Below, piece by piece: positions 6,222 to 8,256 of a stretch of DNA of 64,000 nucleotides. Position 1 is the first letter of the stretch; each line of letters opens with the position of its first letter. Under the pieces are notes generated by a model. The model had not been told where the DNA came from, searched no databases, and worked only from the letters and a program-made list of their open reading frames with translations. This DNA is from Escherichia phage 235Ecol030PP. A program made the translations under genes and the position numbers. The stretch lies in sequence record PP355091.1, one strand, 5' to 3'.

Positions 6222-6527
6222 TAAGCCTTGCGGCAACCTTGTCGGGGTTCCACCTGCTAAGGCAAGTGTTTGTACGAAACGCCGGGATTCGAACCCGGTT
6301 ATTAAGCAGTTGACGCTACTCAATATTTTTAAAAGGCCATATCTCGACCATATCCGAACGTTCCGTCAAAAACGCTACTCGGTTTACGGCAAAGATATTT
6401 CCTCGAATCGATAATTCGGTGCGCCGTTTCTGCTGTGATAGTAAAGAGCCAGAACACAGTAAAACTGTGGGAGGAAACTATACTCCAGGGAACATCAGTC
6501 CGACGACTTACCGGTAGCGACCCGGTT
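6222..6527 (-). ncRNA. probable stable small RNA(s) downstream of tRNA-Arg, T4 species 1 / species 2 type
   Basis: no ORF of 60 aa or more; tRNA-like T-arm CCGGGTTCGAATCCCGG (fwd ~6283-6299); ends at terminator 6193-6221; boundaries not determined. Confidence 0.3.
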
Positions 6528-6529
6528 TC

Positions 6530-6880
6530 TTAGTATTCTTTTAAAGCATCAACCTGTTCACGACGTTTACGCCATAAATCAATTACTTCATACGCAGATT
6601 CAGCATTTCGAATTGGACGGCATTTATATAAAGACTTGTGATTTTGATATTGTGTAGATAACGGAATTTTATCTAAAAGGTCTTTACGTTCAAAATATTC
6701 GTAACCATCTAAACCAAATGAACGATTTTTGAGAAATTGCCAATGACCATATTCGTTTTCGACATAAACATAATCTGCATGCTGATAAAGCAAATTAATT
6801 ACACGTTCAGAAATAACAGTATCATTATGATTAAAATAGAATGTTAAATCATGAACTACTAAATAAACATTACCTTTCAT
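6530..6880 (-). CDS. hypothetical protein between stable RNA region and tRNA-Arg
   Basis: 116 aa, ATG at 6880 with GAGGAAA RBS. Confidence 0.6.
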   Translation of the reverse strand: MKGNVYLVVHDLTFYFNHNDTVISERVINLLYQHADYVYVENEYGHWQFLKNRSFGLDGYEYFERKDLLDKIPLSTQYQNHKSLYKCRPIRNAESAYEVIDLWRKRREQVDALKEY

Positions 6881-6898
6881 ATTTTCCTCACTTATAAT

Positions 6899-6974
6899 TG
6901 GTCGAGGCAGTAGGGATCGAACCTACGACCCAGGACTTAGAAGGTCCTTGCTCTTCCTTCTGAGCTATGCCCCG
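6899..6974 (-). tRNA. tRNA-Arg (anticodon UCU), CCA encoded
   Basis: cloverleaf read by hand; T-arm GTAGG-TTCGATC-CCTAC; anticodon loop CUUCUAA. Confidence 0.85.
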
Positions 6975-6977
6975 TAA

Positions 6978-7643
6978 TTAAAATTTCATTTTTCGACCTT
7001 TAAACCATCCTTCTGGAATTGGGTCAGTTTTCTTAATACGTTTAGAAACTTTTTCATCTAATGAATGAATCCACATCATACCAAATTGGGAATTCTTTTC
7101 GCCCTGTTGATGTTTATTTCTGGCGTGAGATTCTTTCATTTTATTAATAGTTTCAGGAGTATGATGCTTATTTAAAAATCTGCTATTATTTAAAAATTTT
7201 TCCCTGTATTCAGGAGTTGACCACAAGCGTTTAAATACATTTGAACCATGTTTACGATATTTTTCTTGAAGTAAAATATCATTTTTAAAACGTGACTTAA
7301 ACGATTTAGCTCCTTTTAAGCTAGCATCTTTCTTCTGGTTTAGCATCCCAGGAATATTTACATGATCCCATCCACCTTCACCACCAAGTTTTAAATTATA
7401 CACATCTGGTCTATTTAAAAACTCTTCTGTGACAATATTTTTCTCGGCTTCAAGCATAGATTCTTTATCGTCAAAGAACTCTAATATTTCTTTAGAAAAA
7501 TTTTCTATACCATACTTATCTTGGGCTCTTTTTAATAATTTACCAGAACCCATATATCCATCATCTAAATTTTCGGTAGAATGAGCGCCTATATAGATTT
7601 TATTATTAATTTTATTTGTTATTTTATAAATGTAATGGAACAT
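6978..7643 (-). mobile_element. segB: GIY-YIG homing endonuclease SegB within the tRNA cluster
   Basis: 221 aa; N-terminal YIYKITNKINNKIYIGAHS GIY-YIG motif; located between tRNA-Arg and tRNA-Ile as in T4. Confidence 0.85.
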
Positions 7644-7684
7644 AAATATCTCCTATTTCTAAGAGTATTTATGTTCTCAAAATA

Positions 7685-7756
7685 TGGCCCTGGGTGGAAT
7701 TGAACCACCATCTGGCGATTATGAGTCGCTTGCTTGAACCTTCCAGCTACAGGGCC
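7685..7756 (-). tRNA. tRNA-Ile (anticodon CAU; Met by anticodon alone)
   Basis: acceptor GGCCCTG/CAGGGCC, T-arm GGTGG-TTCAATT-CCACC, anticodon loop CUCAUAA. Confidence 0.8.
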
Positions 7757-7762
7757 TTGATA

Positions 7763-7835
7763 TGCTGATTGACGGAATCGAACCGCCGACGTCCTCATTA
7801 CAAGTGAGGTGCTCTACCTACTGAGCTAAATCAGC
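7763..7835 (-). tRNA. tRNA-Thr (anticodon UGU)
   Basis: D-arm GCTC-AGTAGGTA-GAGC, anticodon loop CUUGUAA, T-loop TTCGATT. Confidence 0.85.
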
Positions 7836-7842
7836 GAAATTA

Positions 7843-7929
7843 CGGAGGCGATAGGATTTGAACCTATGAGTCGCCGGAGCGACTGCCGGTTTTCAAGACC
7901 GGTGCATTAAACCACTCTGCCACGCCTCC
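7843..7929 (-). tRNA. tRNA-Ser (anticodon UGA), long variable arm
   Basis: acceptor GGAGGCG/CGCCTCC, anticodon loop CUUGAAA, T-loop TTCAAAT. Confidence 0.85.
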
Positions 7930-7931
7930 AG

Positions 7932-8005
7932 TCTCCGTGGCAGGATTTGAACCTACGACATTCTGCTCCCAAAGCAGACGCTCTACCAAACTGAGCTACA
8001 CGGAG
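7932..8005 (-). tRNA. tRNA-Pro (anticodon UGG)
   Basis: D-arm GCTC-AGTTTGGTA-GAGC, anticodon loop UUUGGGA. Confidence 0.85.
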
Positions 8006-8018
8006 TAAATTAAATTTG

Positions 8019-8089
8019 AGCGGATAATGAGAATCGAACTCACATCATCAGATTGGAAGTCTGAGGTAATACCATTATACGATATCCGC
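8019..8089 (-). tRNA. tRNA-Gly (anticodon UCC)
   Basis: acceptor GCGGATA/TATCCGC, anticodon loop CUUCCAA, T-loop TTCGATT. Confidence 0.85.
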
Positions 8090-8095
8090 AAACTT

Positions 8096-8182
8096 TGGTA
8101 CGAGAAGTGGGACTCGAACCCACAAGGAAATCATTCCGCAGCATTTTAAGTGCTGTGTCTTTACCAATTTGACCATTCTCGC
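8096..8182 (-). tRNA. tRNA-Leu (anticodon UAA), long variable arm, CCA encoded
   Basis: anticodon loop CUUAAAA, T-arm GTGGG-TTCGAGT-CCCAC, 3' ACCA. Confidence 0.85.
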
Positions 8183-8183
8183 G

Positions 8184-8256
8184 CTGGGAATAAAGGACTC
8201 GAACCTTTGCATCCTGGAATCAAAATCCAGTGCCTTACCAACTTGGCTAATTCCCA
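8184..8256 (-). tRNA. tRNA-Gln (anticodon UUG)
   Basis: acceptor TGGGAAT/ATTCCCA, anticodon loop UUUUGAU, T-loop TTCGAGT. Confidence 0.85.

Follow-up and report, generated by a model that had tools for sequence, protein, structure and literature searches.

Covariation-supported structures of the stable RNAs rnaC and rnaD in the tRNA operon of a T-even phage

The tRNA operon of T-even phages is best described in phage T4, where, as in phage RB33, the annotated order runs from tRNA-Gln to tRNA-Ile and continues with segB, tRNA-Arg, rnaD (species 2 RNA) and rnaC (species 1 RNA). Under laboratory conditions, phages can do without the tRNA region (PMC2330249), T4 tRNA maturation depends on host RNase P (PMC11143913), and rnaC and rnaD are stable, late RNAs whose function is listed as unknown in reviews and omics papers (PMC3014915, PMC9697503). 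From the literature and established knowledge, the block would be transcribed as polycistronic precursors and cut by the tRNA-processing enzymes of the host, with RNase P making the 5′ ends, and endo- and exonucleases together with the CCA-adding enzyme making the 3′ ends; the phage tRNAs are thought to supplement or replace host tRNAs, including those destroyed by tRNA-targeting defenses. Here, we analyze this locus in Escherichia phage 235Ecol030PP (sequence record PP355091.1), within a stretch of 64,000 nucleotides (nt) referred to as the window, whose numbering is used throughout, and focus on its rnaD and rnaC homologs. Unless stated otherwise, all features are on the minus strand.

Several other structured RNAs invite comparison. 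tRNA-like domains that do not decode are found in tmRNA, in the tRNA-like structures of plant viruses and in the bacterial Y-RNA-like YrlA; acceptor stem, T-arm and tail are the features recognized by RNase P, the 3′ trimming enzymes and the CCA-adding enzyme. GOLLD and ROOL are large, ornate RNAs of phages and prophages, often located beside tRNA genes, with unknown function. They share with rnaC and rnaD that they are phage-borne, structured and tRNA-adjacent, but exceed them five- to sevenfold in size and have no sequence or Rfam model similarity to them. Lastly, pseudo-ToxI of Pectobacterium phage phiTE, an RNA mimic of the ToxI antitoxin, is an anti-defense element in the same tRNA array as an rnaD homolog.

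In the window, tRNA-Gln, -Leu, -Gly, -Pro, -Ser, -Thr and -Ile are followed head to tail by segB, tRNA-Arg, a conserved small open reading frame (ORF), rnaD, rnaC and a terminator, all co-oriented. This is the make-up of the T4-type operon, and it is practically certain that the locus is the known tRNA operon of a T-even (Tequatrovirus) phage, a confidence that refers to its identity and make-up and excludes the inferred role of rnaC and rnaD. The 2.26-kb stretch matches 912 phage records, mostly of Tequatrovirus and with hosts almost all from Escherichia, Shigella, Salmonella and Yersinia; for 55 records, the match extends over at least 80% of the locus, and the closest, IME537, shows 97% identity. 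As a system, the locus has no novelty: it is textbook T-even biology, and near-identical copies, many of them poorly annotated, are present in GenBank. An earlier note, made from the sequence alone, had described an eight-tRNA cluster with an embedded homing endonuclease and a tRNA-like stable RNA region ending at a terminator. Our analysis supports this interpretation, which was a correct call and not a discovery; the interest is confined to the structure and comparison of rnaC and rnaD. These occupy about 330 nt of non-coding sequence (no ORF of at least 60 amino acids (aa) between 6199 and 6529), which align base for base to RB33 rnaD and rnaC, except for the central ~45–50 nt of rnaD. For the segment 6222–6527, of which the first base belongs to the terminator stem, the note had proposed an alignment to the T4 species 1 and 2 RNAs and a search for conserved structure in relatives; the segment does align, and the covarying helices described below are found.

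The rnaD homolog (6418–6533) is built on a scaffold of four helices, P1, the core helix, P2 and Pv1. P1 (6522–6526/6510–6514) is a 5′ hairpin, which in some lineages carries a large insertion and becomes a multi-helix junction. The core helix (G6507 and 6501–6505 with 6421–6426, U6506 being bulged) pairs G(N)CGUC-S with S′-GGCGC around a single bulged base; the 3′ tail behind it has the form A-CC-N, with ACCA in T4 and ACC(G) in the window. P2 (6491–6494/6431–6434) and Pv1 (6481–6484/6440–6443), the base of a variable central domain, complete the scaffold. In a plain MAFFT alignment of 16 sequences, 90.9% of cells are paired, compared with 33–46% in slid controls, in which the partners are displaced by 1–3 columns; 14 of the 20 pairs show changes on both sides, and RNAalifold, applied to this alignment, independently returned the same helices. 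A covariance model built for rnaD (R1) detects a single copy per tRNA array in 41 loci, those of Certrevirus, the Vequintavirinae phage W70, Phapecoctavirus and Karamvirus-like phages among them, and places that of the window at 6416–6534 with 114.6 bits. Among the 37 distinct sequences, 89.7% of cells are paired, with 115 double-change cells as opposed to 9–19 in the slid controls; the core helix is kept in every one of them, and its S:S′ pair is G-C in 22 sequences and C-G in 15.

Beyond the T4-like phages, BLAST and pattern scans of IMG/VR revealed further rnaD homologs, all of which lie in tRNA arrays and immediately follow a tRNA on its 3′ side. Two patterns were used for the scans, as the first was matched mostly by chance and had to be replaced by a stricter two-anchor pattern. 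Homologs are found in the Vequintavirinae phage W70, in Certrevirus (PBES02, POP15, phiTE, F2M1E) and Phapecoctavirus (536P1, phiWec188), in Karamvirus-like phages such as MY742 and in related uncultured contigs. No Rfam 15 family matches rnaD or rnaC even at E ≤ 10, aside from a weak tRNA-Sec match on rnaC, and BLAST found no relative of either RNA in 5,426 E. coli genomes. A scan of 185,579 genomes, one per bacterial or archaeal species, yielded five matches to the rnaD pattern, which is about the number estimated by chance, and R1 confirmed none of them. On these searches, a host origin or host mimicry was rejected, and as far as they can see, the rnaD family is restricted to phages. rnaD is a covariation-supported RNA family without an Rfam entry, found in the tRNA arrays of Tevenvirinae, Vequintavirinae and Phapecoctavirus.

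Two peculiarities of individual lineages deserve mention. In eight loci from Certrevirus and other non-T4 phages (L148, L155, L039, L138, L145, L186, L187 and L189), P1 is expanded by 30–85 nt and branched; the expanded domain reads GAAGCGG-UGCCAAGCUGGUAA...AGCCCAGAUGG...CCGC and shows, by eye, the covarying pairs GCGG/CCGC, AGGGU/ACCCU and GCGAG/CUCGC, as well as CCA/UGG in place of UUG/CAA. In Phapecoctavirus 536P1 (locus L005), the rnaD homolog is immediately preceded on its 5′ side by a tRNA-like sequence with a CCCA end (2420–2498), which neither ARAGORN nor Rfam calls a tRNA.

As rnaD is always located between RNase P substrates, one could regard it as a catalytic RNA that processes the tRNA transcript, either as a minimal RNase P-like RNA or as a small self-cleaving ribozyme. 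Its core AAG(U)CGUC/GGCGC, with the bulged nucleotide and an upstream ...GAA.. strand, superficially resembles the P4 helix of RNase P, and its ‘CUGAUG ... GAAAC’ is reminiscent of hammerhead core motifs. However, a search with 186 nt at E ≤ 10 gave no match to RNase P, hammerhead, twister, pistol, hatchet or any other Rfam family, the bulged base, which is universal in RNase P, can be U, C or A among the members of the rnaD family, the internal loop varies by lineage, and the junction is two-way instead of three-way. Since T4 tRNA maturation moreover relies on the RNase P of the host (PMC11143913), a catalytic rnaD is very improbable. On the level of individual motifs, the RNase P-like core was discarded, given the missing Rfam match on the 186 nt and the variable bulged base, and so was a hammerhead or kink-turn at the internal loop (CUGA/GAAA), which has the wrong junction topology, is replaced by AAGCUC/AGAU in Karamvirus-like sequences and finds no Rfam match. 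A local hairpin GUC-GUCG-GAC was likewise rejected, as Phapecoctavirus has GUCGUCCAAC at this position.

The central domain of rnaD occurs in at least four unrelated forms on the constant scaffold. Compared with T4, about 50 nt at the 5′ end and about 25 nt at the 3′ end are identical, whereas the ~45 nt in the center represent an unrelated allele. The window carries a form that we call type B, defined by the hairpin CACAG-N5-CUGUG (6465–6469/6455–6459); it is absent from T4, but occurs in T2, BW-1, Phapecoctavirus, Certrevirus PBES02 and some IMG/VR contigs. BW-1 (OR125554.1) matches the window both in this allele and in its ORF-rnaD-rnaC arrangement, and three BW-1 lines evolved on the semi-permissive host ECOR34 shared one convergent, adaptive single-nucleotide polymorphism (SNP) in rnaD, T to C at 164264 (PMC12685909). 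On the RNA strand, this is a change from A to G, its direction being taken from the wording of that paper, and the ancestral A is found in CACAG-UUUUA-CU[A]UG. The change restores a C-G pair of the CACAG/CUGUG hairpin and with it the family consensus CUGUG, to which G6457 of the window conforms. Exact matches to the A allele with BW-1 flanks are limited to 5 GenBank records; judged by identity bands, G is present in almost all remaining type-B alleles. On the predicted fold, the SNP is thus the repair of a conserved rnaD base pair, a structural reading that is absent from PMC12685909. It is also the only reported phenotype-linked mutation in rnaC or rnaD.

An exchangeable domain on a constant scaffold could also be the seed of a trans-acting regulator, so that rnaD, and perhaps rnaC, would act by base-pairing. 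The RNAs are made late (PMC9697503), Shine-Dalgarno sequences are possible pairing partners of a pyrimidine-rich motif (UUCCUCCC/CCCUC), and most rnaD alleles keep a CCCUC- or CCUCC-like run, an impression gained by eye and without statistics. Yet the BW-1 SNP restores an internal stem and not a single-stranded seed, Karamvirus-like alleles lack the C-rich run, there is no Hfq-type 3′ end, and no target was found, none having been sought, so that we consider a regulator of this kind quite unlikely. A universal C-rich, anti-Shine-Dalgarno-like motif in the variable domain was rejected because it is missing from the Karamvirus-like alleles, and is kept as an idea only.

The second stable RNA, rnaC (6273–6411, 180.3 bits with a second covariance model, R2), is a 139-nt gene that follows rnaD and is near-identical to the annotated rnaC of T4 (about 98% identity) and RB33. 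With R2, divergent homologs were detected in Karamvirus-like phages and other large contigs. The minimum-free-energy fold is unusually stable (z = -4.28), and in the alignment of homologs 93.6% of cells are paired, compared with 39–47% in the slid controls, with compensatory (double) changes in 25 of 49 pairs; RNAalifold arrived at the same fold on an independent MAFFT alignment. The acceptor stem (6404–6410/6275–6281) has seven pairs, namely C-G, G-C, A-U or G-C, two tandem U.U pairs, C-G and G-C, of which the U.U pairs are invariant in all 15 sequences. At the position of the D-arm, rnaC has a very long arm (6334–6403), which is followed by a 10-bp arm (6316–6325/6300–6309) with the loop CGUCAA and by a T-arm of 5 bp with the canonical UUCGAAU loop in most members. 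The T-arm (CCGGG-TTCGAAT-CCCGG, 6282–6298) is the tRNA-like element that had been spotted in the earlier note. At the tip of the long arm, the loop UUGACG is the complement of the CGUCAA loop (6365–6368 with 6311–6314), with pairing in 100% of cases, and one lineage has exchanged both loops jointly, for UUGGCG and CGCCAA, in what counts as a single evolutionary event. This supports a predicted kissing interaction between the two loops. Past the acceptor stem, the sequence continues with U-ACA-A in T4-like members and with U-CCA-A in one lineage. Taken together, rnaC is a cloverleaf-shaped tRNA mimic.

The mimicry is one of shape: both rnaC and rnaD score below the gathering score of the tRNA covariance models (RF00005/clan CL00001), and the sole tRNA-type match, that of tRNA-Sec to a part of rnaC, reaches 16.6 bits with a cut-off of 47 (E = 2.9). 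The internal acceptor stem behind this match (CGGAACG/CGUUUCG, with G3.U70) was rejected, as it contains an A.C mismatch in Karamvirus-like sequences; it is also contradicted by the 5′-terminal stem, which covaries from A-U to G-C (8:7), and by the internal segment itself, which covaries within its own hairpin. Compared with the tRNA-like domains introduced above, rnaC shares the acceptor stem stacked on a canonical T-arm and the cloverleaf topology, and rnaD the acceptor-like helix with its A-CC-N tail. By contrast, neither matches an Rfam model of these domains, rnaC has no G3.U70 in its acceptor stem, CCA is not encoded in most members, and the acceptor-like helix of rnaD has an internal 5′ strand, which is preceded by a hairpin.

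Some Tequatrovirus-like contigs in IMG/VR (L024, L085, L089, L106 and L120) possess rnaD without rnaC. In these, rnaD runs directly into the 3′ trailer (GAACACTTGCC...), and the two stable RNAs can therefore be seen as separable modules. The trailer (6223–6272), which these phages retain, contains the conserved hairpin CACUUGC-CUUA-GCAGGUG and a direct repeat, CCCCGAC..AAGGUUG, which overlaps the stem of the terminator. The latter (6199–6222), noticed in the earlier note, is intrinsic and consists of a 10-bp stem with a GAAA loop and a run of U residues; trailer and terminator together fold with z = -4.23. Directly after the terminator, a perfect T4 late-promoter box, TATAAATA (6185–6192), precedes a 111-aa ORF (5809–6144); the window holds 25 such boxes, with 9.5 expected.

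The complete lack of rnaC in Tequatroviruses such as L024, L085 and L106, together with the failure of every Rfam tRNA model on an RNA that nevertheless has a T-arm and an acceptor-like stem, and with the dispensability of the tRNA region in the laboratory (PMC2330249), could suggest that the ~330-nt stretch consists of decayed tRNA pseudogenes or processing spacers without a selected structure or function. This is hardly credible in view of the strong compensatory covariation of both RNAs across lineages and of elements that stay invariant despite diverged flanks, i.e. the U.U pairs in 15/15 rnaC and the core helix in 37/37 rnaD sequences. Furthermore, both RNAs accumulate as stable late RNAs in T4 (PMC9697503), and the adaptive BW-1 SNP mends an rnaD helix.

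What, then, might these RNAs do? Both terminate in a helix resembling an acceptor stem, from which a short single-stranded 3′ tail extends, and through this acceptor-end mimicry they may be matured and stabilized like tRNAs. As non-decoding tRNA mimics, they could then bind or titrate a host or defense factor in a host-dependent manner, while being presumably dispensable on laboratory hosts. Such a host-specific role is suggested by the BW-1 SNP, the exchangeable rnaD domain, the laboratory dispensability, the phage restriction and the phiTE homolog beside pseudo-ToxI. In phiTE (L188, 574–723 and 744–802), the rnaD homolog is followed, about 10 nt on, by a tRNA-like gene into which the pseudo-ToxI repeats are inserted; pseudo-ToxI differs, however, in being a separate element of ToxI-like repeats, and rnaD has no similarity to ToxI. 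We regard a decoy or counter-defense role for rnaC and rnaD as a tentative possibility, and consider a role in processing or translation housekeeping unlikely. The broader proposal, in which rnaD founds an unrecognized, phage-restricted RNA family that travels with the tRNA arrays of three groups of large enterobacterial myoviruses, with a constant scaffold (5′ hairpin or three-way junction, bulged acceptor-like core helix and A-CC-N tail) and a swapped central domain, and acts together with rnaC as a host-specific counter-defense RNA or host-factor decoy, would as a whole have to be called doubtful.

Several points limit our reading of the locus. The idea of a tRNA mimic or decoy is a best guess drawn from the shape of the RNAs, their context and a single published SNP, which could itself be standing variation. 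Tequatrovirus and Karamvirus-like types of rnaD have different internal loops, so that no single conserved binding motif can be named. The ends of rnaD are predicted, and its 5′ end directly follows tRNA-Arg in T4 but an ORF here. The protein encoded by this ORF has no recognizable fold (AlphaFold2 pLDDT 68; no Foldseek match in the PDB at E ≤ 0.001). Likewise, the lysidine of the CAU-anticodon tRNA discussed below would be a modification that DNA does not show, which keeps the tRNA-Ile2 identity a prediction. Finally, alignments made with our own covariance models favor the model structure, and related sequences inflate shuffle controls, a bias that is mitigated by the slid controls and the independent RNAalifold runs.

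The genes around the stable RNAs document the mosaic make-up of the locus. A gene-by-gene comparison with T4 (NC_000866.4, 70,908–72,530) shows the same gene order and strand, with T4-like alleles of tRNA-Thr, -Ser, -Gly and -Leu (almost identical), segB (96%) and rnaC, and with identical 5′ and 3′ parts of rnaD. By contrast, the T2/BW-1-like part comprises tRNA-Arg, a 116-aa ORF and the rnaD central domain, and the alleles of tRNA-Pro, tRNA-Gln and the CAU-anticodon tRNA also depart from those of T4, which has no 116-aa ORF between tRNA-Arg and rnaD. BW-1 shares with the window the order tRNA-Arg, 351-nt ORF and rnaD with the type-B domain, and T2 shares the 116-aa ORF (94.8% identity), but T2L and BW-1 lack segB and have tRNA-Tyr and -Asn where the window has tRNA-Thr, the CAU tRNA and segB; in T2L, two ORFs and the tRNAs for Met, Tyr, Asn and Arg take the place of segB (PMC2330249). 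The window therefore looks like a T2-type cluster that was entered by a homing segB with short co-conversion tracts, and its mosaic of T4-type and T2-type alleles fits an exchange driven by SegB.

SegB itself (6978–7643, 221 aa), named as a homing endonuclease in the earlier note, is a free-standing enzyme: its GIY-YIG domain scores 30.7 bits (Pfam cut-off 22.6), 213 of 222 aligned positions, stop included, are identical with T4 SegB (96%), and Y17 and G19, the residues substituted in the catalytically dead mutant Y17A/G19A (PMC13096335), are present in its KIYIG motif (residues 15–19). Cleavage by the protein of the window is accordingly a prediction, as SegB activity has been established for the T4 and T6 proteins only (PMC2330249, PMC13096335). 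When a phage lacks segB, SegB cleaves its tRNA genes at the T-loop DNA motif GGTTCRANTCC, and it homes into T2L with nearly 100% efficiency (PMC2330249); it also drives segmental amplification, of tRNA-Tyr to counter Septu and of other anti-defense genes to counter OLD and ToxIN (PMC13096335). In the cluster described here, its cleavage would likewise spread segB with its flanks to related phages and could trigger the amplification of tRNA and anti-defense genes under immune pressure. An exchange of the cluster through SegB, as put forward in the earlier note, is already covered by the published work (PMC2330249, PMC13096335). The motif GGTTCRANTCC occurs seven times in the cluster, with 0.1 copies expected for the whole window; six copies correspond to tRNA T-loops and the seventh to the rnaC T-arm. 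An eighth copy, GGTTCAAATCC, is located at 33191–33201, within a 610-aa ORF on the plus strand (32273–34105) and with no tRNA there. It is probably a coincidence, but amplification in trans implies SegB sites outside the cluster, and this copy could be one of them.

Exactly eight tRNAs are present in the window, between 6899 and 8256, on which ARAGORN and the Rfam tRNA covariance model agree (59.9–73.5 bits, above the gathering score). This bears out all eight tRNAs that had been called by hand in the earlier note, and its spacers of 2–13 nt within the block of seven are essentially right, although the callers differ and give 0–13 nt. tRNA-Ser (UGA, 7842–7930) is identical to its T4 counterpart and tRNA-Gly (UCC, 8018–8089) is so over the called gene, while the T4-like tRNA-Leu (UAA, 8096–8182) and tRNA-Thr (UGU, 7763–7835) match at 85 of 87 and 72 of 73 positions. 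tRNA-Gln (UUG, 8183–8256), with 74 nt as opposed to 73 nt in T4, has 65 identical positions and tRNA-Pro (UGG, 7931–8005) has 63 of 75. In tRNA-Gln, the anticodon stem and the loop positions 32 and 38 are changed (CUUUGAC to UUUUGAU), and tRNA-Pro shows compensated changes in the anticodon, T and acceptor stems. The differences of these two from T4 are mainly compensated changes in the anticodon stem, a variation that is discussed in the literature for the escape from anticodon nucleases.

The tRNA with the anticodon CAU (7685–7756) is most likely a lysidine-dependent tRNA-Ile2. It is unrelated to the T4 allele of tRNA-Ile and nearly identical to the CAU tRNA of the Vequintavirinae phage W70. 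ARAGORN and several GenBank records label it Met, the equivalent tRNA of T2L has been named tRNA-Met (PMC2330249), and with the experimentally defined tRNA-Ile of T4 it shares just 47 of 72 positions, all of which would suit an elongator tRNA-Met. We nevertheless prefer Ile, in agreement with the earlier note, because the best E. coli relatives are genes annotated as tRNA-Ile (80.8% over the full length) and because the sequence reads C4-G69, C5-G68 and an anticodon arm GCGA-CUCAUAA-UCGC. The former pairs we take to be TilS determinants, and the latter to be the anticodon arm of E. coli tRNA-Ile2 (ileX); an identity as tRNA-Met is, on these grounds, rather improbable.

tRNA-Arg (UCU, 6899–6974) is of the type found in RB33 and in the IMG/VR contig L047 and not of the T4 type, with which it shares 51 of 76 positions. 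Its acceptor stem contains G3.U70, flanked by G2-C71 and G4-C69, and the discriminator A73, which is presumably the acceptor signature recognized by AlaRS. The G3.U70 pair is not conserved, as related alleles (IMG/VR L106) have A3-U70.

The 116-aa ORF (6530–6880, phrog_3355), which is absent from T4 and RB33, is, relative to these two, a precise insertion with the CCA end of tRNA-Arg on one side and the start of rnaD on the other. The earlier note was right about its presence, but it is not peculiar to the source phage: by tblastn, 425 phage records contain it, T2 and Mosigvirus (about 67% identity) among them, and at every place examined it lies directly 5′ of rnaD. Homologs are confined to T4-like phages and belong to the PHROGs class ‘unknown function’; the sole Pfam match, to DUF2654, is sub-threshold. 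The stop codon lies inside the rnaD leader, 3 nt 5′ of the P1 hairpin, and the C-terminus is predicted to form a long helix with a basic patch (WRKRRE). A physical link of the protein with rnaD is conceivable, but T4 keeps rnaD without the ORF.

Since the 1970s, rnaC and rnaD have had no assigned function. The comparison presented here gives covariation-backed structures for both and shows that the conservation of rnaD reaches far beyond the T4-like phages, and it makes an old question experimentally approachable, at low cost, through specific structure-based hypotheses. If the proposed role were true, the species 2 RNA, whose function has been unknown for 50 years, would gain one as a host-specific counter-defense or decoy RNA.

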